Part shown: positions 1,621 to 64,000 of the stretch, piece by piece
How the letters are laid out: each line of letters begins with the position of its first letter
Numbering within the stretch: position 1 is the stretch's first letter
DNA from: Minisyncoccota bacterium
Lineage (GTDB): Bacteria > Patescibacteriota > Minisyncoccia > Phycocordibacterales > UBA9973
Assembly (NCBI GenBank): GCA_041664285.1
Contig: JBAYLA010000004.1
Coordinates: forward strand, 3,171-67,170
Reading direction: 5' to 3'
DNA: 64,000 nt
Notes under the pieces: model-generated
What the model saw: only the letters and a program-made list of their open reading frames with translations
What the model was told of the DNA's origin: nothing
The model's database searches: none
Position numbers and translations under genes: made by a program

Positions 1621-2025
1621 CTACTTATTTAAATTTAAAAAAGTAATAGCAAATTGTAAGATAGTTGCAAAAGTCACCCAAAGTAAATATGGGATTTGAA
1701 TGTAAGTAACCCACTTAAAATATGGGTAGATAACTACCATCGCCCAAATGAGAGTAATTAAAACAAATGAAATATCAAGGGCTGCAAGAAAATTATTTTT
1801 AAGACCAAATTGAATATAAGTAAAAATAAAATTAAAAAATAAATTAAGAACAAATGGCAAAGCAACGATAAATGGAATTTGTTTTTGCCACACACTTAAA
1901 AAAACTTTTCCAAAAGAAACAGCAATCAAAATATAGAGCACACTCCAAACTGGACCAAAGAATGAAGAAGGTGGTGCCCAAGATGGTTTAATTAATTGTG
2001 AATACCAGTTATAAGTATTGTTCAT
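1621..2025 (-). CDS. TspO/MBR family tryptophan-rich membrane protein
   Basis: Motif PSWAPPSSFFGPVWSVLY and multiple Trp-containing TM segments characteristic of TspO/MBR. Confidence 0.65.
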   Translation of the reverse strand: MNNTYNWYSQLIKPSWAPPSSFFGPVWSVLYILIAVSFGKVFLSVWQKQIPFIVALPFVLNLFFNFIFTYIQFGLKNNFLAALDISFVLITLIWAMVVIYPYFKWVTYIQIPYLLWVTFATILQFAITFLNLNK

Positions 2026-2112
2026 AAAATTTGTTTCGTAGAAAATACTTTTTTAAAGATCTCCTCTTGTGCAATGTCGATCATTCAAAAAGTATTTTCT
2101 ACTTCACATACA

Positions 2113-2514
2113 TTAACTTATAATTTGAGTACAATGTGCACAACGCTTGGCAGTAATAGGGATCTCACTTAAACATTCACTGCATTTCTTAGTCGTTGGA
2201 TCTGCTGGTGGTTCTTTACGAGAACGAGAAATAAGAATGTTAATTGGTTTAATAACAAAAAAGAACACAGCTGTAGCCACAAGAATAAAGGAGATTAAAG
2301 TATTAAAGAAATGACCATACATAAACTTACTTCCATTAATAGTAAACATCAAACCACTGAAATCCGGCACTTTAGCAATAGCAGAGATAAAAGGAGTAAG
2401 TAGATCCGACACCAGGGCCGTCACCACACTACCAAAAGCGGCACCAATCACCACACCAACAGCTAAGTCTACAACATTCCCTCGAAGCAAAAATTGTTTA
2501 AATTCTTTTAGCAT
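2113..2514 (-). CDS. mscL: Large-conductance mechanosensitive channel MscL
   Basis: N-terminus MLKEFKQFLLRGNVVDLAVGVVIGAAFG is nearly identical to the MscL consensus. Two TM segments and a C-terminal helix. Confidence 0.85.
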   Translation of the reverse strand: MLKEFKQFLLRGNVVDLAVGVVIGAAFGSVVTALVSDLLTPFISAIAKVPDFSGLMFTINGSKFMYGHFFNTLISFILVATAVFFFVIKPINILISRSRKEPPADPTTKKCSECLSEIPITAKRCAHCTQIIS

Positions 2515-3788: not shown

Positions 3789-3903
3789 TCTCTTCGAGTC
3801 TGAGGCTCTCAGAGCCGAAGGCCTGAAGTTCTCGGCTCGCCAGACTCGAAACCCCTTTAAAAGTCTATTTATTGTTTTTTAAAACTACTCTAAAATTATT
3901 AAT

Positions 3904-4785
3904 TTACCAAGAACCACTCGAGCCACCACCACCAGAAGATCCTCCTCCAAAACCACCAAATCCGCCTCCGCCACCAATACCTCCACTCCCCCCACCAAAC
4001 CACCAAGGGTAATGACCTGATGTTTGTTTTTGGGTATAAGCTTTAGAAACTAAAAAGTCAAAAAGTAATCCTAACCCAATAAATAAAAAGATAATCGGAA
4101 CTGCCAACAAAAGCGAAGAAATAAAGAAATGCCAAATAACCAAAGCGATACCTCCACCCAAAACTCCTCCATGCCACCAAGACTTTGATCGTCCTAAAAT
4201 AGCAGCCAGGATTTGAAAAACAACAAATACTATAAAGAAAATAAACTCCCATGGCAATTTAGGCATAGATTGCGTGACGGAATAATTCTCTGGCACAATA
4301 TTACTACCTTCAAGGGAGATAATAATTTTATCTATAGCACCATTTATGCCTTCATAATAATTACTTTTTTTAAATGCCGGAGTGATAATGTCTTGCTGAA
4401 TATAAGAAGTAGCCAAATCAGGCAAATCTCCTTCCACTCCATATCCAGTATGGATTCTAGTTTTTCGGTCTGACAAGGCAACAAGGAGTAAAACTCCATT
4501 ATTTTTTTCTTTCTTCCCTATGCCCCATTTAGTAAAGATCTCTTGCGCTAAGTTTTCTATCACCTCACCATCCAAAGACGGTATCATCACCACAGCTATT
4601 TCATTGGTGGTACTTTTTTCAAATGCTTCCAGTTTCGTTTCAAGTAGAGCAATCTGTTCCTGTGAAAGCATGCCCGCGTAATCCTGCACGAAGCCAGTTG
4701 GTTTCGCAGGAATATCAAAAGCCAGTACAGAAAAAGGTAAAAAGAAAAAAACAAATAGCAATAATTTAGATATAAAATGAGGCAT
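3904..4785 (-). CDS. TPM-domain (TLP18.3/Psb32/MOLO-1) putative phosphatase with TM segments and a Gly-rich C-terminal tail
   Basis: Signal/TM segment, then a TPM fold region (LLETKLEAFEKSTTNEIAVVMIPSLDGEVIE...), TM helices and a GGSGGIGGGGGFGGFGGG tail. Lies immediately downstream of LemA, a known pairing. Confidence 0.75.
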   Translation of the reverse strand: MPHFISKLLLFVFFFLPFSVLAFDIPAKPTGFVQDYAGMLSQEQIALLETKLEAFEKSTTNEIAVVMIPSLDGEVIENLAQEIFTKWGIGKKEKNNGVLLLVALSDRKTRIHTGYGVEGDLPDLATSYIQQDIITPAFKKSNYYEGINGAIDKIIISLEGSNIVPENYSVTQSMPKLPWEFIFFIVFVVFQILAAILGRSKSWWHGGVLGGGIALVIWHFFISSLLLAVPIIFLFIGLGLLFDFLVSKAYTQKQTSGHYPWWFGGGSGGIGGGGGFGGFGGGSSGGGGSSGSW

Positions 4786-6144: not shown

Positions 6145-7122
6145 CTACTCTGTTAACCCGCATTTTGTTTTAAGTGCTGATAAATCTGTATCAGAAAGAA
6201 TCAGGCTCGTACCTTGATTAAGCTCATACATTATTGCCTTCGGATCATCTATATGGTCTAAATGAAGAGCGTGGCCAAGCTCGTGCGCGAGTACTCGCAC
6301 GAGCTTGGCCCGACTACTAAATTCATAAATATCTATTTCTCTATTTAACCCATTCTCTATATAAACCCCCTCTTCAAAGCTCTCTCCCCGTGAACCATTA
6401 ACTGTGTTGTATTGATCCACTGATATATTTAGCATGGCAACTAAACGATTAAGTGCCACCACTAACGCATTTATCTCATCCACCATAGCATTAATTCTAA
6501 CTTGTTCAGCTTGTAACTCTGACGCTTCTTGTTTTAATGATGCTTTTTCAGCTTGAAGTTTATCATATTCCTCTTGGGGTGCCCCACCTTTTTTATTCCA
6601 GAAGTTCACCTCTGTTTCATAAGTTTGTTGTTTTCGATTAAAAGCATCTATTTGTGAATTTAGGGCGCTTTTTTCTGTTTTATATTTTGCTTGCAAAGTT
6701 GTAAATTTTTCTTTCAACATATCATAAGAAGCTCTGTCATTTTTTACAGTAATACCAAGACTCGCTAATTTACTCGTAGCTTGTTGTCGATAATCATAAA
6801 TTAAATTAATTTTCAGAACATTGTTAGACGAACTCTCTGGTAAATAAACAAAAAGATTTTTCCCAAAAGGCTGCTCCCAAATAGCTTCCGCGTCTCTAAG
6901 AGCACTTAAAAAATAACTTTTTGAAATATTAAACTGTAGATCAAAAGTGCCAAGAGTATATGGTATCGGCTCGGAACAAGGAACTTCTAGAAAAATTCTA
7001 TTAAAATTACTTTTTAAATTATCTAAAAAAGAAATAGACTGCGTATTGAGCGGAATCCTAAATTGATATATAAAAACTCCAATAATGACAAGTAGAATAG
7101 AAAATTTTAAAATTTTTTTCAT
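6145..7122 (-). CDS. Membrane-anchored metzincin-type zinc metalloprotease (matrixin-like) with a coiled-coil region
   Basis: C-terminal VLAHELGHALHLDH is a HExxHxxGxxH zincin motif followed by a Met-turn region (IMYE). N-terminal TM. The central region is Q/K/E-rich and helical. Confidence 0.6.
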   Translation of the reverse strand: MKKILKFSILLVIIGVFIYQFRIPLNTQSISFLDNLKSNFNRIFLEVPCSEPIPYTLGTFDLQFNISKSYFLSALRDAEAIWEQPFGKNLFVYLPESSSNNVLKINLIYDYRQQATSKLASLGITVKNDRASYDMLKEKFTTLQAKYKTEKSALNSQIDAFNRKQQTYETEVNFWNKKGGAPQEEYDKLQAEKASLKQEASELQAEQVRINAMVDEINALVVALNRLVAMLNISVDQYNTVNGSRGESFEEGVYIENGLNREIDIYEFSSRAKLVRVLAHELGHALHLDHIDDPKAIMYELNQGTSLILSDTDLSALKTKCGLTE

Positions 7123-7123
7123 T

Positions 7124-8866
7124 TTAGAGTTCTTCTTGCGAAGGAGCGATAATTTTTGCCCGCCAGAACTTAGTATTAATAGTTTTCGCTAAATCTTTTA
7201 ATTCTTCATTCTTGAGCAAATATAAAACAACAATAGCCGCCATAATACCTAAAATTCCAGAAATAAACCCTTGCAAAAACACGCCCCAAAAAGTGGTCGT
7301 ACCAAAAATTGGAGAAAGAATATTTAAACTTAAATAAGCTACTATCCCTAGAAAAAATGATGCTCCTAAACTTTGAAAAAAAGTCTTATTGATAAAAGGT
7401 TCATGCGGCATAAAGTCTTTCTTTATAAAAATCCATTGTAAAATAAAATTTAAAATAGTTCCGACAGAATACGCAAGTGGAAGCATTAATACTTCAGTCC
7501 CATCAATATCATTCACTTTCAATATTGATTCTATGAAAAAACGAAAAGTCTGTATATTTTCAAAAAGATGGATAAATACATAAGCTAAAATTATAATTAA
7601 GACGGAACAAGAAAAATTTACAATAAGGGGACGTTTGGTATTGCCAGTTGCATAATAACTCCGAGAAAGCAAAGTAATCATTCCCTGAGCAAGAATAGAA
7701 ACAGAGAAAATGGCGAGAGAAGCTGCGACCAGGCGAGTATTGTCCCAAGAAAAAGATCCGGAACCGAGAATCACACGCACAATCTGTGCACGAAGAACAA
7801 TAAAGAGAAATATGACCGGAAGAGACCAAAAGACAATGGCTCGTGACGCCTCTTTTAAATGTTTTTTAAATTCTTCTGTTTTACCACCACTAAAAGATTT
7901 GGCTAAGGTCGGAAAAGCCGCCACTGCATAAGATATGCCAATAATATTAAGTGGTACTGACTGAAGATTGAATGAAAAATTAAAGATTGAGATAGAACCA
8001 CTTTTTAAAAAGGACGCCATCGCTATAATAAAAATAAGTGCAAAATTGTTAAAAGCTAAACCTAAAGTCCGAGGAAGCGACGTCAAAACAGTACTTTTAA
8101 TATCTTTAAAATTAATTGCGAAAGGAAAAAAGGTCTTACCAGCCGTATTACGGCTGAAAGAGAATTTTGGGGTAAAACCACAAGAACGTGCTGCAAAAAA
8201 TTGCACACCAAAATGCATCAAGGCTCCCAGCGCCACGCCAAATGCTAATCCATCAATTTCAAAAACTGGATAAAGAAATATAACACCAATAATAATTCCT
8301 AAATTATAAAAAATTGGACTTAAGGAATAAATAAAAAACTTACGAAAAAGTTGCGTCACTGTTCCAAAAAGATTAGATAAGCCCATTAATATAGGCGAGA
8401 GCAACATTATCCGTGAAAGTAAAATCACTTTCGCTTGATAAGGTGAATCAAAACCTGGAGCAATAAAAGATATTAAATATGGCATAAGAAAAAATGCCAC
8501 TAGGGAAACAAGCACCATAAAAGAAAAGAAAACAGTAAAAACATCATTTAAATATTTTTGAGCTGTTTCGGACACCTTATTATCCCCATTCCCCACAGCT
8601 GATTGATGAGCAGGCATTTTAGCTACTATAAAAGGAATGAGCACCGTAATAGAAGCCAGAGATGCTATGGAAATAAAAATTAAATCTGGTACACGAAAAG
8701 CCGCATAATAAGCATCAAGTGATGGAGAAGGTCCAATAAAATGTGCAATAGAACGATCACGAAAAAGTGCCAAAATCTGAGAAAGTAAAGTAAAAGAACC
8801 CAAAAGAATAGCGGCCTGATTTATACTCCCAGATTCTTTGGTAAAGATTTTTAAAATTTTTTCCAT
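7124..8866 (-). CDS. murJ: Lipid II flippase MurJ/MviN
   Basis: 580 aa polytopic membrane protein. The N-terminus SINQAAILLGSFTLLSQILALFRDRSIAHFIG matches MurJ. Confidence 0.8.
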   Translation of the reverse strand: MEKILKIFTKESGSINQAAILLGSFTLLSQILALFRDRSIAHFIGPSPSLDAYYAAFRVPDLIFISIASLASITVLIPFIVAKMPAHQSAVGNGDNKVSETAQKYLNDVFTVFFSFMVLVSLVAFFLMPYLISFIAPGFDSPYQAKVILLSRIMLLSPILMGLSNLFGTVTQLFRKFFIYSLSPIFYNLGIIIGVIFLYPVFEIDGLAFGVALGALMHFGVQFFAARSCGFTPKFSFSRNTAGKTFFPFAINFKDIKSTVLTSLPRTLGLAFNNFALIFIIAMASFLKSGSISIFNFSFNLQSVPLNIIGISYAVAAFPTLAKSFSGGKTEEFKKHLKEASRAIVFWSLPVIFLFIVLRAQIVRVILGSGSFSWDNTRLVAASLAIFSVSILAQGMITLLSRSYYATGNTKRPLIVNFSCSVLIIILAYVFIHLFENIQTFRFFIESILKVNDIDGTEVLMLPLAYSVGTILNFILQWIFIKKDFMPHEPFINKTFFQSLGASFFLGIVAYLSLNILSPIFGTTTFWGVFLQGFISGILGIMAAIVVLYLLKNEELKDLAKTINTKFWRAKIIAPSQEEL

Positions 8867-12337: not shown

Positions 12338-13405
12338 TTATTGAGTTGGTGCTGGAGCTGATACGGGAGTTGGTGTGGGGTATGATAATACCGGTTTGGA
12401 GTAAATATTTGGATTTATAGTCTCTGAAAAACAATAGTGTCCAGCCGGATGAGTCCAAGATTTTGAGGAATAGGTATTAAAATTATTTTTATCATTTGAT
12501 TCTTTGTTGAATTCTGCACAAAGATTATAAGTTAGATTCCCTGTCTTTTGATATTCATATGGTTTTTGACTTTGAGGATCAAGAATGCCAGGAATATAAT
12601 AATCTCCTTTATATATTTGTTCTAGTCTGTCTGGTAAATTTCCAAATCCTGAATAATAGTTTTCAATTGCATTATTCATATTCCGCAAATCACTAACTTT
12701 TTGTTCATCGTATTTTAATAATTGTTGTGTTCGAGGAGAACCAAGAATAAAGAATCCCCAGGTTATACAAGCAAGAATTACTAAAGCAGAACTAACTGTC
12801 CAAGCTTTTCGATAAGTGCTATTTGTTTTTCCTAATACATCATAGATATAATAAAAGAAAATCGCCAGGGCTATTACTAAAACCGATAAAACTTTTAAAA
12901 TAAAACCCGTTGTAATATCCTGACCATCTATGAAAAAGTATAAAACCGTAACTAAATCTCCAGCCAAAACAAATCCTGAAACAAAAAGAGTTATGTAGGT
13001 CAACCATTTACGGATACCTATATTTCTTTTTTCTGGTTCTATGGAATAATTTCTCTCTAAAAGCCACATCAAAAAAACATAAACGGGAAAGAAAATGATA
13101 AGAGAAGCTACTGGAAAACTAATAGAATAACTTCCGTAGTAATTATAACCAGTAGTAAGTGGATAAGCTTTATTGATTATTGTAAACAAAAGACTAAGAA
13201 GGTTACCAACAAAAAAACCGAGAGCGATAATAGCACCTAAGTTTATAAAAAAATCTTTAGCACTTGTTTTTGTTTGTGTTTGTGTTTCCATATTTGTTAA
13301 ATTAACGATAATAATAAAAATAACAATGATTATTATAATAATACCACCCAAAATAAACATATGTCTATTGTACCATATCTCTACTCCAAACGGCTGTATT
13401 AGCAA
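12338..13405 (-). CDS. Polytopic membrane protein with a C-terminal extracellular domain and a Pro/Thr-rich tail
   Basis: Several TM helices then a soluble domain ending in PTPTPVSAPAPTQ. The real start may be an internal Met (METQTQ...). Confidence 0.45.
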   Translation of the reverse strand: MLIQPFGVEIWYNRHMFILGGIIIIIIVIFIIIVNLTNMETQTQTKTSAKDFFINLGAIIALGFFVGNLLSLLFTIINKAYPLTTGYNYYGSYSISFPVASLIIFFPVYVFLMWLLERNYSIEPEKRNIGIRKWLTYITLFVSGFVLAGDLVTVLYFFIDGQDITTGFILKVLSVLVIALAIFFYYIYDVLGKTNSTYRKAWTVSSALVILACITWGFFILGSPRTQQLLKYDEQKVSDLRNMNNAIENYYSGFGNLPDRLEQIYKGDYYIPGILDPQSQKPYEYQKTGNLTYNLCAEFNKESNDKNNFNTYSSKSWTHPAGHYCFSETINPNIYSKPVLSYPTPTPVSAPAPTQ

Positions 13406-14348
13406 GAGATACTATGCGATTATTTGATTTTTCTAAGACACAAAGTTCGCCAGCTTCAATATTACCCTTAAAATCAGCCATTGTATCGGCTAGCGCGTAT
13501 CCTAAAGAAAGTGACGAAGAATCAACTGCGTAAGAAGTCAAAATAACGAAAAGTGGTTTGTCGCTTAAAACTTTTCGTACTTGTAAAAGAAGCCTTGGGA
13601 GCATCTCCTCAATTTTCCATATTTCTCCTTTAGGTCCTCTGCCAAACTTAGGCGGATCCATGATAATTGCATCATATCTGTTCCCTCTTTTTTCTTCTCT
13701 CTCTAAAAATTTTAAAACGTCATCTTCTATTATCCGCATAGGTGCTTCAGCTAATTCAGTATTTAATTTTTGATTTTCTTTTGCCCAAGCTAAAGTTTGT
13801 TTCGAAGCATCTAAATGAGTAACTTCTGCACCAGCCCGCAGAGCAAAAAGACTTGCTACTCCGGTGTAACCAAATAAATTTAAAAACTTAAGCCCAGAAG
13901 AATAAGGAAAATTCTGTCCGTGTCGGAGCCCGCTTGCGGGTAAAGCGGCAGAATTTTCTTTATTCTTTAGGGCTTGCTTAATCTTATCCTCAATAAAATC
14001 CCAATGACTCGCCTGCTCTGGAAAAAATCCCAAATGTCGAAAAGGTGTCGGGGAAGCAAAAAATTTTATACCTTTGTATTCCATCTCCCATTTTGATTCT
14101 ATTTTTTTATCTATTTTCCAACCCGCTTTTGCTCCAACTTTGGAACTCCAAAATTTTCCGTTTGCTTTTGCCCACTTCTCTTTCATTTCTATAGCCTTTG
14201 GCCATACGGCATCTTCGTATGGACGCACAAAAATATATTTGCCGAATCTTTCTAGCTTCTCCCCTGCACCCGTATCCAAGAGTTCATACCCTATCTTGTC
14301 CAGAGCAGAGCTAAGCGACCAATCTTTTGAATAAAAAAGTTTTATCAT
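13365..14348 (-). CDS. Class I SAM-dependent RNA methyltransferase, RlmI/RlmK-like
   Basis: Rossmann SAM-binding motif LNLFGYTGVASLFAL and a DPPKF catalytic motif (IIMDPPKFGRG), typical of RlmI-type rRNA methyltransferases. Confidence 0.6.
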   Translation of the reverse strand: MIKLFYSKDWSLSSALDKIGYELLDTGAGEKLERFGKYIFVRPYEDAVWPKAIEMKEKWAKANGKFWSSKVGAKAGWKIDKKIESKWEMEYKGIKFFASPTPFRHLGFFPEQASHWDFIEDKIKQALKNKENSAALPASGLRHGQNFPYSSGLKFLNLFGYTGVASLFALRAGAEVTHLDASKQTLAWAKENQKLNTELAEAPMRIIEDDVLKFLEREEKRGNRYDAIIMDPPKFGRGPKGEIWKIEEMLPRLLLQVRKVLSDKPLFVILTSYAVDSSSLSLGYALADTMADFKGNIEAGELCVLEKSNNRIVSLANTAVWSRDMVQ

Positions 14349-27632: not shown

Positions 27633-28796
27633 ATGAATTTAAAATTCAAACATTCATTTAAGTTTCTATATTACATAAGTTTTATTTTTTCAATCCAATA
27701 CGCCTTAGTGGTGTATGTAAACTCTAGTTTTCTAGAAATTAAAATTGGAGAAAGTTTGATTGGTATCGTCTTCACTATTGCTTCTTTTTTAAGTATTTTT
27801 GCTCTACTCCAAATTACTCATTTGTTAAATCGCCTAGGAAATTACAAATCTTCCATATTAATAATATTAGCTAATGTTGCTTCCCTCTTTTTAATGGGCT
27901 TCGGAAAATCAATTTTTTTAATTATTTTAGGATTCATTCTTTATAACATCACTAATTATTCTTTAATGTTTTCAAGAGATGTTTTTATTGAAGATGTAGC
28001 TGACCATAAAGCTATGGGTAAAACTCGTGGATTATTCCTTACTATTAGCAACATTGCTTGGGTTTTTGCTCCAATTATTTCAGGATTTATTATTACACGA
28101 TTTTCCTATTCCGGAGTTTATATTCTAGCAGCCCTTGTTTCTCTATCCTCAATATTTTTAATTTTTTCTTCTTTTAATAAATTTAGGGATCCAAAATATA
28201 GTAAAATTTCTTTACTTGAAACTTTTAAAAAAATCCTTGGAGATAAAAATTTAAAAAAAATTTTTGCTTCCGAATTTCTTTTACGTTTTTTTTATTCTTG
28301 GATGATAATCTATACTCCTATTTATTTACGCGAATATTTAAATTTTAGCTGGAGTGAAATTGGAATAATTTTCACTATAATGCTTATTCCTTTTGTAATA
28401 TTAGATTACCCATTAGGAATTTTGTCAGATAAAATTGGTGAAAAGAAAATATTGACTTTGGGTTTTTCTGTAATGGTTATTGCAACAATTTTAATGTTTT
28501 TTATTACAACATCAAATATTTTTATCTGGGGAATAATTTTATTTGCCACTCGAGTTGGAGCAGCTACAGTAGAAGTGATGAACGAAAGTTATTTTTTTAA
28601 AAAAATTAATTCCAGTGACACTGAACTAATCAGCTTTTTCCGAAACGCTTTCCCTGCATCATTAGTCATTTCACCCATTTTAGCCACAATCTTACTTGGT
28701 TTTTTAAGTCACCAATATCTCTTTCTTATTTTAGGACTAATATTAACGATAGGAATATATTTAAGTCTAACCTTAAGAGAAATTATCCATTCTTAA
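27633..28796 (+). CDS. MFS transporter
   Basis: 387 aa, 12 predicted TM segments, MFS-like loop between TM2 and TM3. Confidence 0.55.
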   Translation: MNLKFKHSFKFLYYISFIFSIQYALVVYVNSSFLEIKIGESLIGIVFTIASFLSIFALLQITHLLNRLGNYKSSILIILANVASLFLMGFGKSIFLIILGFILYNITNYSLMFSRDVFIEDVADHKAMGKTRGLFLTISNIAWVFAPIISGFIITRFSYSGVYILAALVSLSSIFLIFSSFNKFRDPKYSKISLLETFKKILGDKNLKKIFASEFLLRFFYSWMIIYTPIYLREYLNFSWSEIGIIFTIMLIPFVILDYPLGILSDKIGEKKILTLGFSVMVIATILMFFITTSNIFIWGIILFATRVGAATVEVMNESYFFKKINSSDTELISFFRNAFPASLVISPILATILLGFLSHQYLFLILGLILTIGIYLSLTLREIIHS

Positions 28797-30104
28797 ATAC
28801 CCTTTTAGAAACTCTTCCTTGAATTCAAAAAAGTTGTCGTTTAAAATTGATTGCCTAATTTTTTTTACTAAGTTAACAATAAAATATAAATTATGAATGG
28901 AAGCTAATGTCCCCGCTAGCATTTCTTTCCCGTGAAAAAGGTGAGCGATGTAGGCGCGAGAATAATTCTGACAAGAATAACATTCGCAATCTTTTTCAAT
29001 CGGAGAAAAATCATTTCGATATTTTGTATTCATTATAATTATTTTTCCATTTTTAGTATAAATAGTTCCATTTCTGCCGAGACGAGTGGGTGCCACACAA
29101 TCAAAAAGATCTACTCCATTTTCAACCCCCATAAATAAATCCTCTGGTTCCCCAATGCCAAGCAAGTGACGAGGTTTTTCTTCCGGTAAAATTTCATTGA
29201 CCCATTTTACCGCAGTAGACATGTCCTCTTTCGCAAAACTTCCACCAATCCCAAAACCATCAAAATATTTTCCATCTACATTTATTTCTGAAATAATTTT
29301 TGCAGATTTCTTTCTTAAGCTCTCTTCCCTACCTCCTTGCACAATACCGAATAGCACAGGAGAAAAATCAGAAACATACTCGGGCGAACGGTCGACGTTG
29401 CGTAGCAGGAGATCCTGAGAACGAGTTTGTTTCTGATTTAATAGTTTTTGATGTTCTTCTAAACTCCTCTGCGCCCATCTGTGCGTCCTCTCTAATGCTT
29501 CTTCTTGATATTTTAAATCTTCACTCGGAGAAGTACATTCATCAAAAGCAAAAATTATATCTGCTCCAAGGTTGTGTTGAATCTGAATTGATTTTTCTGG
29601 AGTAATATAATGAATAGAACCATCTAAGTGTGATTTAAAAGAAACGCCGTCTTGTCCAATCTTCGCCAAACGAGGAGCATCACTATCATCAAAACGTTCT
29701 GGAATTAATAATGATGGGTCAGTAATTTTTGAAAGATGAATCAACTTAGAAATATCTTTTCCAAAAGCAGCCCCTAGTGAAAATACTTGAAAACCCCCAG
29801 AATCAGTCATGGTGGGACCCTTCCAATTCATAAATTTACCAATACCTCCAGCATCACGCACAATTTCATCTCCAGGCTGTAAATACAAATGATAGGTATT
29901 ACCAAGCACCACTTGGGTACCAGCGTCTTTCACCTGCTCGGGATTTAAAGATTTTACAGTAGCCTTGGTTCCTACTGCCACAAAAGCTGGAGTCAAAATA
30001 TCTCCATGAGAAGTCTGCAAAACCCCCACTCTGCCCAGATATTTTTTTCCGCCAGAGGCGGATCCGCCCTTGGCGGAAATTCTTTTTTCTATTTTAAATT
30101 GCAT
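28773..30104 (-). CDS. tgt: Queuine tRNA-ribosyltransferase (tRNA-guanine transglycosylase)
   Basis: LQTSHGDILTPAFVAVGT, GGFQVFSLG, FAFDECTS, the LFGIVQGG motif and zinc site CxCxxC (CECYSC)...H. The start ATG overlaps the mreC stop (TAATG), supporting start 30104. About 60 aa longer than typical Tgt because of two apparent insertions (see findings). Confidence 0.85.
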   Translation of the reverse strand: MQFKIEKRISAKGGSASGGKKYLGRVGVLQTSHGDILTPAFVAVGTKATVKSLNPEQVKDAGTQVVLGNTYHLYLQPGDEIVRDAGGIGKFMNWKGPTMTDSGGFQVFSLGAAFGKDISKLIHLSKITDPSLLIPERFDDSDAPRLAKIGQDGVSFKSHLDGSIHYITPEKSIQIQHNLGADIIFAFDECTSPSEDLKYQEEALERTHRWAQRSLEEHQKLLNQKQTRSQDLLLRNVDRSPEYVSDFSPVLFGIVQGGREESLRKKSAKIISEINVDGKYFDGFGIGGSFAKEDMSTAVKWVNEILPEEKPRHLLGIGEPEDLFMGVENGVDLFDCVAPTRLGRNGTIYTKNGKIIIMNTKYRNDFSPIEKDCECYSCQNYSRAYIAHLFHGKEMLAGTLASIHNLYFIVNLVKKIRQSILNDNFFEFKEEFLKGYLRMDNFS

Positions 30105-48556: not shown

Positions 48557-49210
48557 TTACTTCTTCTTCCACTCTTCAATCTTCTTATGATTTCCAGAAA
48601 GTAAAACTTTTGGAACTTTGTAATTTTTGCCCTTATATTTCAAAACTTCCGGACGAGTGTAGACTTCACTACTTGAGACACGCTCTTCTTCTAAAGATTC
48701 ATATTTACCAAGCACCCCAGGAATTTGACGAGAGATAGAATCAATGAGAACCATCGCTGGAAGTTCCCCACCAGTCAGTACATAATCCCCTATTGAAAAC
48801 TTTTTAGTTTTTAGAATTTTATCTATCCGCGCATCTATTCCTTCATATCTTCCACAAATTAAAATAATATCTGTATACTTTTTGGAAAATGTTTTAGCAA
48901 AATTAGTAGTGAATTTTGGAGCACTTGGAATAAAATTAATGATTAGAATTTTTCGGCTCTTGCCCTTCGCGATGCTCAGGACCTTCGCCACTGCCTTTAA
49001 TAGTGGTTCGGCTCGCATCACCATTCCTGGACCTCCGCCGTAAGGTTTGTCATCGACAGGCTTATAATTGTTTTTGGGTGCTTTTATAAAATCTCTTGGA
49101 TTATAAAATTTTACAGAAATAATTTTATTTTTTATTGCTCGGCCAATAATAGATTCATTTAAATATGAATCAAAAATATCAGGAAAAATTGTAATTATAT
49201 GAAAACGCAT
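48557..49210 (-). CDS. trmD: tRNA (guanine37-N1)-methyltransferase TrmD
   Basis: MRFHIITIFPDIF....SPOUT knot motifs (ICGRYEGIDAR, VLTGGELPAMV). Confidence 0.85.
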   Translation of the reverse strand: MRFHIITIFPDIFDSYLNESIIGRAIKNKIISVKFYNPRDFIKAPKNNYKPVDDKPYGGGPGMVMRAEPLLKAVAKVLSIAKGKSRKILIINFIPSAPKFTTNFAKTFSKKYTDIILICGRYEGIDARIDKILKTKKFSIGDYVLTGGELPAMVLIDSISRQIPGVLGKYESLEEERVSSSEVYTRPEVLKYKGKNYKVPKVLLSGNHKKIEEWKKK

Positions 49211-58550: not shown

Positions 58551-58587
58551 AAATTAATGAACGAAATGAATATAATTTATGAGCATC

Positions 58588-58616
58588 CCGAGCGCGCCTG
58601 CGCGAGGGGCGCCATA
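58588..58616 (-). terminator. GC-rich hairpin immediately downstream of rpmF (putative terminator)
   Basis: cccgagcgcgcctgcgcgaggggcgcc is a GC-rich imperfect palindrome in an AT-rich context. The tail is AT-rich rather than a clean U-run, so confidence is modest. Confidence 0.4.
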
Positions 58617-58617
58617 A

Positions 58618-58848
58618 TTATTTACTTTCTTCTGCCTTTTTTGCTTTAGCTTTCTTTTGCTTCTTTTCTGTCTTTTTGATTAAGTCTAAAACTTTTTTAC
58701 CACGGTAAAAACCACAACCAGAACAAACTGTGTGTCGTCTTTTTAAAGCTTTGCAATTCTCACAATTAGAGAAACTCGTACTCTCCAAAGCATGGTGAGA
58801 ACGTCGGTTCTTTGTATGCGATTTTGTATGTCTCATTCGTACTACCAT
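58618..58848 (-). CDS. rpmF: 50S ribosomal protein L32 with a Lys-rich C-terminal extension
   Basis: MRHTKSHTKNRRSHHAL then Cys pairs (CENC...CSGC) typical of zinc-ribbon L32. The start may be the internal Met (MRHTK...). Confidence 0.7.
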   Translation of the reverse strand: MVVRMRHTKSHTKNRRSHHALESTSFSNCENCKALKRRHTVCSGCGFYRGKKVLDLIKKTEKKQKKAKAKKAEESK

Positions 58849-61291: not shown

Positions 61292-63406
<2,115 letters not shown>

Positions 63407-63413
63407 TCAAATT

Positions 63414-64000
63414 TTATCTCACTTGCCAACCAACCCCATTAGTCTTTTTATCCTTGATTTTATTGGTTATTTGGGTCATAATGTCGTTTACTTCTTGGTC
63501 TGTTAAAGTCCTTTCAAATGACTGAAAAACTAGCCGAAAAGCGTAAGAAATTTGATTCCCTTTTTTAAACTCATCGAATAGTTCTGGACCCTTAATTATC
63601 ATATTCCCCATATTTTCTTTGATTATTTTAGCAACATCTTCATTTATTACTCCTTCAGGCACCCATACTGCTACATCACGCGCAATAAAAGGAAACAGAG
63701 ACCACATTTTGAAAGCTGCGCCTGTGTGCTTTTGTAAATGGTCGACGTTGCGAAGCATGAGATCCTGGTCAAAAGTATCAGATTCGGCTTTCTTGTAAAA
63801 TTCATCGAGGCTCATTTCTTTAATTTCTTTTTTATCTCCATAAGCCACATGCATTTCTTCTTTGTCTTTTTTGAACACTGTTCCAATTTCAAAAATCTTT
63901 ATCTCGTTCATCCCCAGCAAAGGAGCGTTTAATTGGTTTAATTTCAAACTTTCTTTTAGACCATCAGTTAAATTCGTTCTTAAAAATTTTTTGTCTGAAG
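63414..64000 (-). CDS. pheT: Phenylalanyl-tRNA synthetase beta subunit, C-terminal fragment; the gene continues past the window end
   Basis: C-terminal FDX-ACB domain FPFIARDVAVWVPEGV....ELFDEFKKGNQISYAFRLVFQSFERTLTDQEV. The reading frame stays open upstream of the TTG at 63945-63947 to position 64000, so the apparent start in the ORF track is an artefact of the window edge. Confidence 0.75.
   Translation of the reverse strand, partial: SDKKFLRTNLTDGLKESLKLNQLNAPLLGMNEIKIFEIGTVFKKDKEEMHVAYGDKKEIKEMSLDEFYKKAESDTFDQDLMLRNVDHLQKHTGAAFKMWSLFPFIARDVAVWVPEGVINEDVAKIIKENMGNMIIKGPELFDEFKKGNQISYAFRLVFQSFERTLTDQEVNDIMTQITNKIKDKKTNGVGWQVR

Follow-up and report, generated by a model that had tools for sequence, protein, structure and literature searches.

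Two housekeeping genes in a 64,000-nt stretch of a Minisyncoccota genome (contig JBAYLA010000004.1; this whole stretch is the window referred to throughout) share a near-identical segment of about 30 nt. One gene is tgt (28773..30104, minus strand), an open reading frame (ORF) for a tRNA-guanine transglycosylase of 443 aa, with PF01702 in all 120 listed homologs. The other is the C-terminal part of pheT (63414..64000, minus strand), whose ORF extends past the window end and whose homologs carry the PF03147 FDX-ACB domain and PF17759. Read directly from the sequence, the segment lies at 29387-29417 in tgt and at 63737-63767 in pheT, with the minus strand coding in both. An earlier model-generated reading of the same letters (the sequence-only reading) had pointed out both segments, which are real, at coordinates that were each one base too high. 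It had correctly counted 28/31 identical positions and 26/28 in the core, translated the minus strand as SQDLLLRNVDRS in Tgt and FDQDLMLRNVDHL in C-terminal PheT, and spotted the GTCGAC and GATC sites within the segment. Its view that the match was unlikely to have arisen by chance also held up: a degenerate 28-mer search of the window (up to 3 mismatches) found the tgt and pheT sites alone, and 100 dinucleotide-preserving shuffles gave no match (expected number 0.00). A repeat search of the window grouped the two segments as family D12. The GC content of the shared segment is ~58%, against ~34% for both genome and window, and almost all of its codons are GC-ending.

The shared stretch is the conserved apical tip of a hairpin-forming insertion element of 75-90 nt. 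In tgt, the whole hairpin (copy 1) occupies 29365..29439 on the minus strand, which amounts to 75 nt or 25 codons encoding ..NQKQTRSQDLLLRNVDRSPEYVSDF... On the sense strand its 5' arm, AAATCAGAAACAAACTCG (29422..29439), pairs with its 3' arm, CGAGTATGTTTCTGATTT (29365..29382). Between the arms is a GC-rich apical domain (29383..29421) with the conserved core TCAGGATCTCCTGCTACGCAACGTCGACCGTTCG, which corresponds to the segment first noticed. RNAfold gave copy 1 a folding energy of -27.1 kcal/mol and an 18-nt stem with one mismatch. Copy 2 (63711..63792, minus strand) is in the pheT linker just upstream of the FDX-ACB domain; its arms, CTGATACTTTTG / CAAAAGCACACAG, are imperfect, and its core has two substitutions. 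A covariance model of the element, R1, matched copy 1 at 29357-29446(-) with 87.7 bits (E=4e-26) and copy 2 at 63707-63796(-) with 66.8 bits (E=4e-19). The inverted-repeat arms escaped the sequence-only reading, as did a further, third copy (2028-2113) and the fact that elsewhere the element is read in other frames and in the opposite orientation.

The arms are AT-rich inverted repeats of 12-24 bp whose sequence varies by site, and the consensus of the 34-nt GC-rich apical core is TCAGGATCTCCTGCTnCGCAACGTCGACCrTTCr, with 23 invariant columns in an alignment of 15 copies. Leaving aside the high-GC matches described below, all real copies fold as long hairpins. Across the 18 copies aligned with R1, stem pairing was 89.8%, compared with 56.9% in column shuffles and 38-49% in slid-partner controls. 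All of the modelled stem pairs (12/12) had changes on both sides, and none of 500 shuffles reached the observed values. RNAalifold agrees with this result, and the apical domain was invariant across the aligned copies. Every copy thus has terminal inverted repeats, but these vary from site to site, and it is the loop that is conserved; the inner ~8 bp of the arms (ATGCTTTT/AAAAGCAT) recur in some copies only. The element has no ORF besides read-through of the host gene. An Rfam scan (E<=1) of seven element-bearing loci gave nothing but a tRNA and, elsewhere, one match below threshold, so that no family fits.

Scanning the core pattern over a species-representative genome collection and metagenome contigs yielded 20 loci. 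Three of them (L004, L015 and L018, from genomes of 65-69% GC) were set aside from the copy counts: they match the 22 specified bases of the core exactly, within an ABC-type protein, an HrpA-like helicase and an RND-type transporter-like ORF, and encode DL(L/V)LRNVD, but they have no hairpin and look like codon-bias coincidences. Such matches illustrate that a strong codon bias can produce what looks like a repeat at the nucleotide level. The remaining loci all have inverted-repeat arms and belong to AT-rich bacteria of the Candidate Phyla Radiation (CPR), namely metagenome-assembled genomes labelled Paceibacterota, Nomurabacteria and Saccharibacteria. The element was found in more than 15 independent assemblies. 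Its host genes, identified by Pfam including the Pfam labels of homologs, are tgt, pheT, ligA, uvrA, uvrC and trmD. For L002 and L009, translation and Pfam identified the host gene as ligA and ruled out pheT. A viral contig scan and a blastn search of a phage database with the element gave no match, and there is therefore no evidence for a phage origin.

The core is read in several ways. In sense frame 0, used in tgt, pheT, ligA and uvrA, it encodes QDLLLRNVD. In sense frame +1, used in uvrC and trmD, it encodes GSPA(T/S)QRRP (for example GSPATQRRP), and one tgt (L013) reads it antisense as GRRCAAGDP. Beside rpsT in Nomurabacteria, and at 2028-2113 in the window, it is non-coding and yields no peptide. 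Since the same nucleotides are also read in a second sense frame and antisense, and lie in non-coding DNA as well, it is the nucleotide sequence that is shared and not the peptide. The host ORF stays open through the element and in frame beyond it in all 13 coding copies (13/13, in six genes). L013 holds two side-by-side copies in opposite orientation, one of them decayed (NFLLRNVNFS); its second copy has 9 core differences from the consensus, 8/9 being GC to AT changes.

The R1 scan took in the whole window with filters off, recovered both known copies at the scores given above, and also matched 2028..2113 on the plus strand (47.7 bits, E=1e-12). This third copy is intergenic, between a TspO/MBR gene (1621..2025, minus strand) and mscL (2113..2514, minus strand), both identified by Pfam. 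Its arms are perfect over 16 bp (2038-2053 and 2087-2102) and coincide with inverted repeat I3. Its core, TAAAGATCTCCTCTTGTGCAATGTCGATCATTCA, differs from the consensus at 9 positions, and 8/9 of the differences are again GC to AT. It is a decaying copy.

The sequence-only reading had taken the surrounding residues of both proteins to be extra sequence, and comparison with Tgt and PheT homologs established that both host sites hold true insertions. In Tgt, the interval from RWAxRS to LFGIVQGG is 50 aa long here, compared with 26 aa in the shortest close homolog, and the insert of copy 1 is missing from close homologs. Among the 120 listed homologs, which are 73-85% identical to the window protein, this interval ranges from 26 to 97 residues; the shortest of them has the same 12-residue spacing as E. 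coli Tgt. At least nine unrelated insert families occupy the interval, including GSLSxxAxxALPLGSSACETPxK, LSHGSHSNLNMVNExxxAYVAES, LRHSHSILEGQGLAGRSEDS, LRPSPSEWDPRAQKFERS, EYFLEGVSQADEPRGSAPLASGDSDPIKN, PLLVEEGVGGGD..LKGTPPQAGG and SPLEEYPxGEV..HPGASATPQEGN. Sometimes they are nested, with two or three inserts in P0047, P0020, P0112 and P0117. The PheT linker before the FDX-ACB domain behaves as the same kind of hotspot, its length before FPFIARD varying among homologs. Between close Tgt and PheT homologs, these hotspots range from empty to 70 extra residues and accommodate many unrelated hairpin families.

Two further insertion sites were seen in these proteins. PheT has a second, smaller hotspot after FEIGTVF-KK, with inserts of the type (S/N/K)(G/R/P)(S/P)AR(H/N/P)(A/D)S..(D/G)AGG in P0136, P0173, P0184, P0185 and P0186. 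The tgt gene of the window carries, as the sequence-only reading had supposed, a second and unrelated hairpin insert (30037-30088, KGGSASGGKK). It lies on the minus strand at the N-terminus, forms the GC-rich hairpin TTTCCGCCAGAGGCGGATCCGCCCTTGGCGGAAA and encodes ..SAKGGSASGGKKY..; close homologs are ~10 residues shorter, and its matches with R1 are weak and of a generic-hairpin kind.

Presence and absence of the element could also be followed between related genomes. L003 and L012 share ~89% DNA identity. In uvrA, L012 has an 81-nt element with perfect 24-bp arms, and the site is empty in L003. In uvrC, L003 has the studied element at a site where the hairpin element of L012 is a different one, unlike it in both arms and core. 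The filled and empty uvrA alleles, whose flanks have diverged, differ by at most an ambiguous 3-nt TGA duplication in addition to the insert, and no convincing similarity was found when the empty L003 allele was searched for sequence from which the arms might derive. The element is gained or lost as a whole hairpin block with a length that is a multiple of three. In the window, trmD is empty at the site that is occupied by the element in L005 and L016.

Two observations touch on these genes. The other hairpin family of L012, with the core GCTTTACCC..GGGCTCCGAyACG, occurs there twice, in uvrC (7242-7375) and in uvrA (~4240-4300). In the window, a GC-rich 22/24-nt match, CCTTCGCnnTGCTCAGGACCTTCG, links trmD (48964-48987) with the C-terminal region of gyrB (61524-61547) in different frames. 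It contains TCAGGACC-TTCG, which looks like a fusion of both loop edges of the studied element, and its trmD copy sits at the same protein site as the full element in L005 and L016. This match may be a core-less relic or a product of chance (rough chance estimate ~0.03).

Arms and cores have different histories. The tgt genes of the window and of L023 have their arms in common (AATCAGAAACAA.CTCG / CGAG..TGTTTCTGATTT), together with the loop edges TCTCAGG and GACCrTTCr, and the central 20 nt are replaced in L023 by 32 unrelated nt. That second core family (TCAGGTCCTCGGTTCTCC..GGCCAGACCATTCG) is also found in the pheT of L025, within arms of the pheT type. Likewise, the outer arm of tgt (NQKQ) surrounds different cores in other Tgt homologs. 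Arms thus follow the host site and cores move between sites, which accounts for the shared core of tgt and pheT despite their different arms. Because cores are exchanged within unchanged arms, gene conversion probably contributes.

The core is also unusually well preserved between orthologous copies. Outside the element, third-position identity at conserved residues of the four-fold type was 0.29-0.61, and in the core codons it was 9/10 to 12/12 (binomial P 1e-4 to 8e-3; 8 pairs, 5 genes). The core is either under constraint at the nucleotide level or repeatedly refreshed by insertion or conversion. Decayed copies, presence or absence between near relatives and core swapping favour a refreshed selfish element, and they still allow for some constraint.

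The intact frames in three readings argue, at the level of ORFs, that the element is translated and not spliced out or bypassed. It presumably adds ~25 residues to the host protein. An AlphaFold2 model of the window Tgt suggests that the insert (about residues 223-247) continues a helix (197-234) and then forms a low-confidence loop, which is compatible with a protrusion on the protein surface. We also considered whether a hairpin breaks the pheT ORF anywhere, as a sign of splicing or bypass. The two cases were uninformative, because the gene of L024 is split with no hairpin at that place and the frameshift in L025 lies elsewhere. The split in L024 (3990-4020) falls at the linker hotspot: the upstream ORF ends in ..NLYDFTE*, and a separate FDX-ACB ORF of 106-110 aa (MTLQNKKFKMWS..) begins in another frame, 14 nt ahead of that stop. 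Split pheT is also found in proteins P0169, P0182, P0183, P0199, P0222, P0225, P0227 and others. Its occurrence on several contigs indicates that the gene fission is probably real.

[quoted passage not shown] Hairpin elements of a larger superfamily, of which it is one, occupy permissive linker sites of housekeeping genes in CPR/Patescibacteria. With no stop codon in the frame used, it leaves the host ORF intact. Copies decay toward AT and are deleted, other hairpin families take their place at the same hotspot, and cores are exchanged between hairpins that keep their site-specific arms. Mobility would take place at the DNA level and depend on the hairpin or cruciform. The invariant core would either be recognized by a trans-acting enzyme or be the stretch that short-patch gene conversion copies from one hairpin loop to another, and the encoded peptide would have no function of its own. 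The sequence-only reading had proposed a mobile insertion or gene-conversion tract of ~30 nt spreading between housekeeping genes. Insertion in frame at the nucleotide level stands, with conversion probable, and tgt and pheT are indeed both affected. The unit, however, is 75-90 nt long, and the spread is wider, covering many genomes, further genes and intergenic DNA.

Several points weigh against a mobile element. No transposase or partner gene was noticed in the loci examined, although no systematic whole-genome search was made. The arms differ by site and the loop is conserved, unlike in classical MITEs, and the uvrA comparison between L012 and L003 revealed no target-site duplication longer than 3 nt. 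Copy numbers are low, with 2 intact copies and 1 decayed copy in the 64 kb window and 2 copies with an exact core on contigs of 239 and 318 kb, which is little for a proliferating MITE. Conservation of the core could mean functional constraint instead of recent spread. Template-switch correction of quasi-palindromes is a known process, and the covariation in the stem could come from it and not from selection. Finally, translation of the insert is read from the intact ORFs, and the AlphaFold2 model of Tgt is of modest quality (mean pLDDT, its confidence score, 67).

Conservation and covariation would also be expected of a host-beneficial signal acting in cis under purifying selection, either a DNA site bound by a chromosomal protein as a cruciform or loop or a stem-loop in the mRNA, placed in coding sequence because non-coding space is scarce in tiny genomes. 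The core codons are conserved well beyond flanking synonymous sites in the eight ortholog pairs from five genes, the arms have compensatory changes, the core is identical across class-level CPR lineages, and three of the host genes (tgt, trmD and pheT) act on tRNA. Set against this, the other host genes include ligA, uvrA and uvrC, and the hairpin comes and goes, or gives way to an unrelated one at the same site, between genomes that are ~89% identical. Close Tgt and PheT homologs do without the element or have other families, AT-decayed copies persist, and no Rfam family matches. An mRNA-level role in particular is hard to reconcile with both orientations, three frames and an intergenic copy that is antisense to both neighbours. 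We regard such a signal as quite unlikely. The related proposal of the sequence-only reading, a conserved target site for a small RNA, a restriction-modification system or a homing endonuclease, finds no support as a host function, since copies decay, are absent in close relatives and are replaced by unrelated elements at the same site; recognition of the core by some trans-acting enzyme is possible. Other known signals were considered and fitted poorly. Mimicry of tRNA (considered because tgt, trmD and pheT products bind tRNA), a TadA-like UACG loop, the anti-Shine-Dalgarno resemblance of GGAUCUCCUGCU to the 16S 3' end, and parS, dif, Ter and DNA-uptake sites are all at odds with the variable base n, the use of both orientations and all frames, and the copy number.

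Removal of the hairpin at expression, by excision from the mRNA and re-ligation or by ribosomal bypass as for the 'byp' elements of yeast mitochondria, would account for the way essential enzymes tolerate, at the same sites, inserts that are very diverse and in some cases nested, for a long stem that brings the flanks together, and for GC-rich inserts in an AT-rich genome. It would not require the frame to be kept, and yet none of the 13 coding copies, read in three frames, contains a stop, and each has a length divisible by three that leaves the downstream frame unchanged; by length alone the chance of this is ~(1/3)^n. There were no take-off and landing codon pairs of the byp type and no stop codons, and no ribozyme or intron model in Rfam fits. 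This makes removal or bypass very improbable. We give hardly any credence to a shared peptide motif (QDLxLRNVD), a coincidence of codon usage or an assembly artefact. The high-GC loci L004, L015 and L018 do encode DLxLRNVD in unrelated proteins where no hairpin is present. For the AT-rich CPR copies this explanation is refuted: codons throughout the core are GC-ending in a 34% GC genome, the same nucleotides are elsewhere read in different frames or from the opposite strand, or do not code at all, and shuffles lead one to expect none. The occurrence in many independent assemblies (more than 15) also excludes the assembly chimera that the sequence-only reading had allowed for. A more specific version of the mobile-element reading, which we hold to be unlikely, is that the core is recognized by a hairpin-specific recombinase or nuclease of CPR bacteria, as yet undescribed, that drives 'homing' from loop to loop. 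Cassettes, each a core with the common edges TCAGG...GACCrTTCr, would be copied into apical loops of hairpins already present at other loci, which would explain both the identical cores within separate arms in tgt and pheT and the core families that alternate within identical arms. If true, this would be a new mode of DNA mobility inside essential genes that does not break them.

Other hairpins were seen in the window. At 13885-13985, in the ORF 13365..14348 (minus strand; a SAM-dependent methyltransferase by Pfam), a long stable hairpin (-49.5 kcal/mol) has AT-rich arms and a GC-rich tip and lies in frame (..KNKENSAALPASGLRHGQNFPYSSGLKF..); it has the architecture of the studied element with a different core. 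The ORF 6145..7122 (minus strand; Peptidase_M10) contains at 6260-6318 a near-perfect GC-rich palindrome, GGCCAAGCTCGTGCGAG TA CTCGCACGAGCTTGGCC (-43 kcal/mol). One of its arms encodes the zinc-binding HELGH motif and the other AKLVRV, so that it overlaps the active-site motif. Intergenic GC-rich palindromic hairpins at 3792-3857 and 58574-58623 (-33 and -27 kcal/mol) are possibly other families of hairpin elements or terminators.

The genomes of CPR/Patescibacteria are among the smallest and most streamlined of bacteria, and they still hold selfish-looking hairpin hotspots in essential enzymes: Tgt, the beta subunit of phenylalanyl-tRNA synthetase, TrmD, LigA, UvrA and UvrC. Close relatives differ there by the gain, loss, nesting and swapping of inserts. 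In annotation and phylogenomics, such inserts explain length heterogeneity and low-complexity 'loops' in CPR housekeeping proteins, and for the study of protein evolution they are a natural experiment in which loops have been inserted at defined sites. For mobile-element biology, the point of interest is that the conserved part is the loop and not the ends; its identity across class-level lineages implies some recognition machinery. In full-text literature searches, no account of such elements in CPR, Patescibacteria or Parcubacteria came up.

Some known systems are similar in part. The GC clusters and 'byp' elements of yeast mitochondria and the double-hairpin elements of fungal mitochondria are GC-rich palindromic mini-inserts in coding regions of AT-rich genomes. 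Byps break the frame and are bypassed by the ribosome, whereas the CPR inserts always preserve it. In mitochondrial genes of Nematomorpha, long inverted repeats are found within functional coding genes and both arms are translated (PMC6649704). The arms of those palindromes are conserved protein regions and are not dispersed, unlike the CPR hairpins, which are dispensable and share a loop. Both groups are more distant parallels than RPEs.

Among bacterial repeats, REP and REPIN sequences are short hairpin repeats that are thought to move as hairpins of single-stranded DNA, and GTAG- or CGTC-tagged families of them have been reported (PMC3733652). REPs are extragenic and high-copy, 20-40 nt long and conserved in the stem, and RAYT (Y1) transposases mobilize them. 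The CPR element lies mostly within genes, has few copies and is conserved in the loop, which sets it apart from REP/REPIN. Bacterial MITEs (ERIC, BOX, Correia and others) are non-autonomous elements bounded by inverted repeats that have no ORF of their own and sometimes form in-frame fusions with host genes (PMC10969869). The CPR element resembles them in being smaller than ~300 bp, in having no coding capacity of its own and in being present in one and absent from another of two related genomes. In classical MITEs the terminal inverted repeats are conserved, and target-site duplications and a related insertion sequence go with them, whereas the terminal arms of the CPR element vary by site and so lack that conservation.

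The closest analogue is the RPE. RPEs are small palindromic repeats that lie in frame in unrelated housekeeping genes of a reduced AT-rich genome, where they add a peptide, and they are also intergenic (PMC10969869). The CPR element is likewise palindromic, in frame in coding genes (13 copies in 6 genes) and also intergenic. RPEs are ~100-150 bp long, have a conserved peptide per family and reach dozens of copies per genome in Alphaproteobacteria. The CPR element, in contrast, is 75-90 nt long, is conserved only in its apical 34 nt, is read in three frames and has few copies. Compared with RPEs by description only, it also differs in its site-specific arms and in the exchange of cores in situ. 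Since its hosts are CPR bacteria, we regard it as an analogue of RPEs and not as a member of that group.

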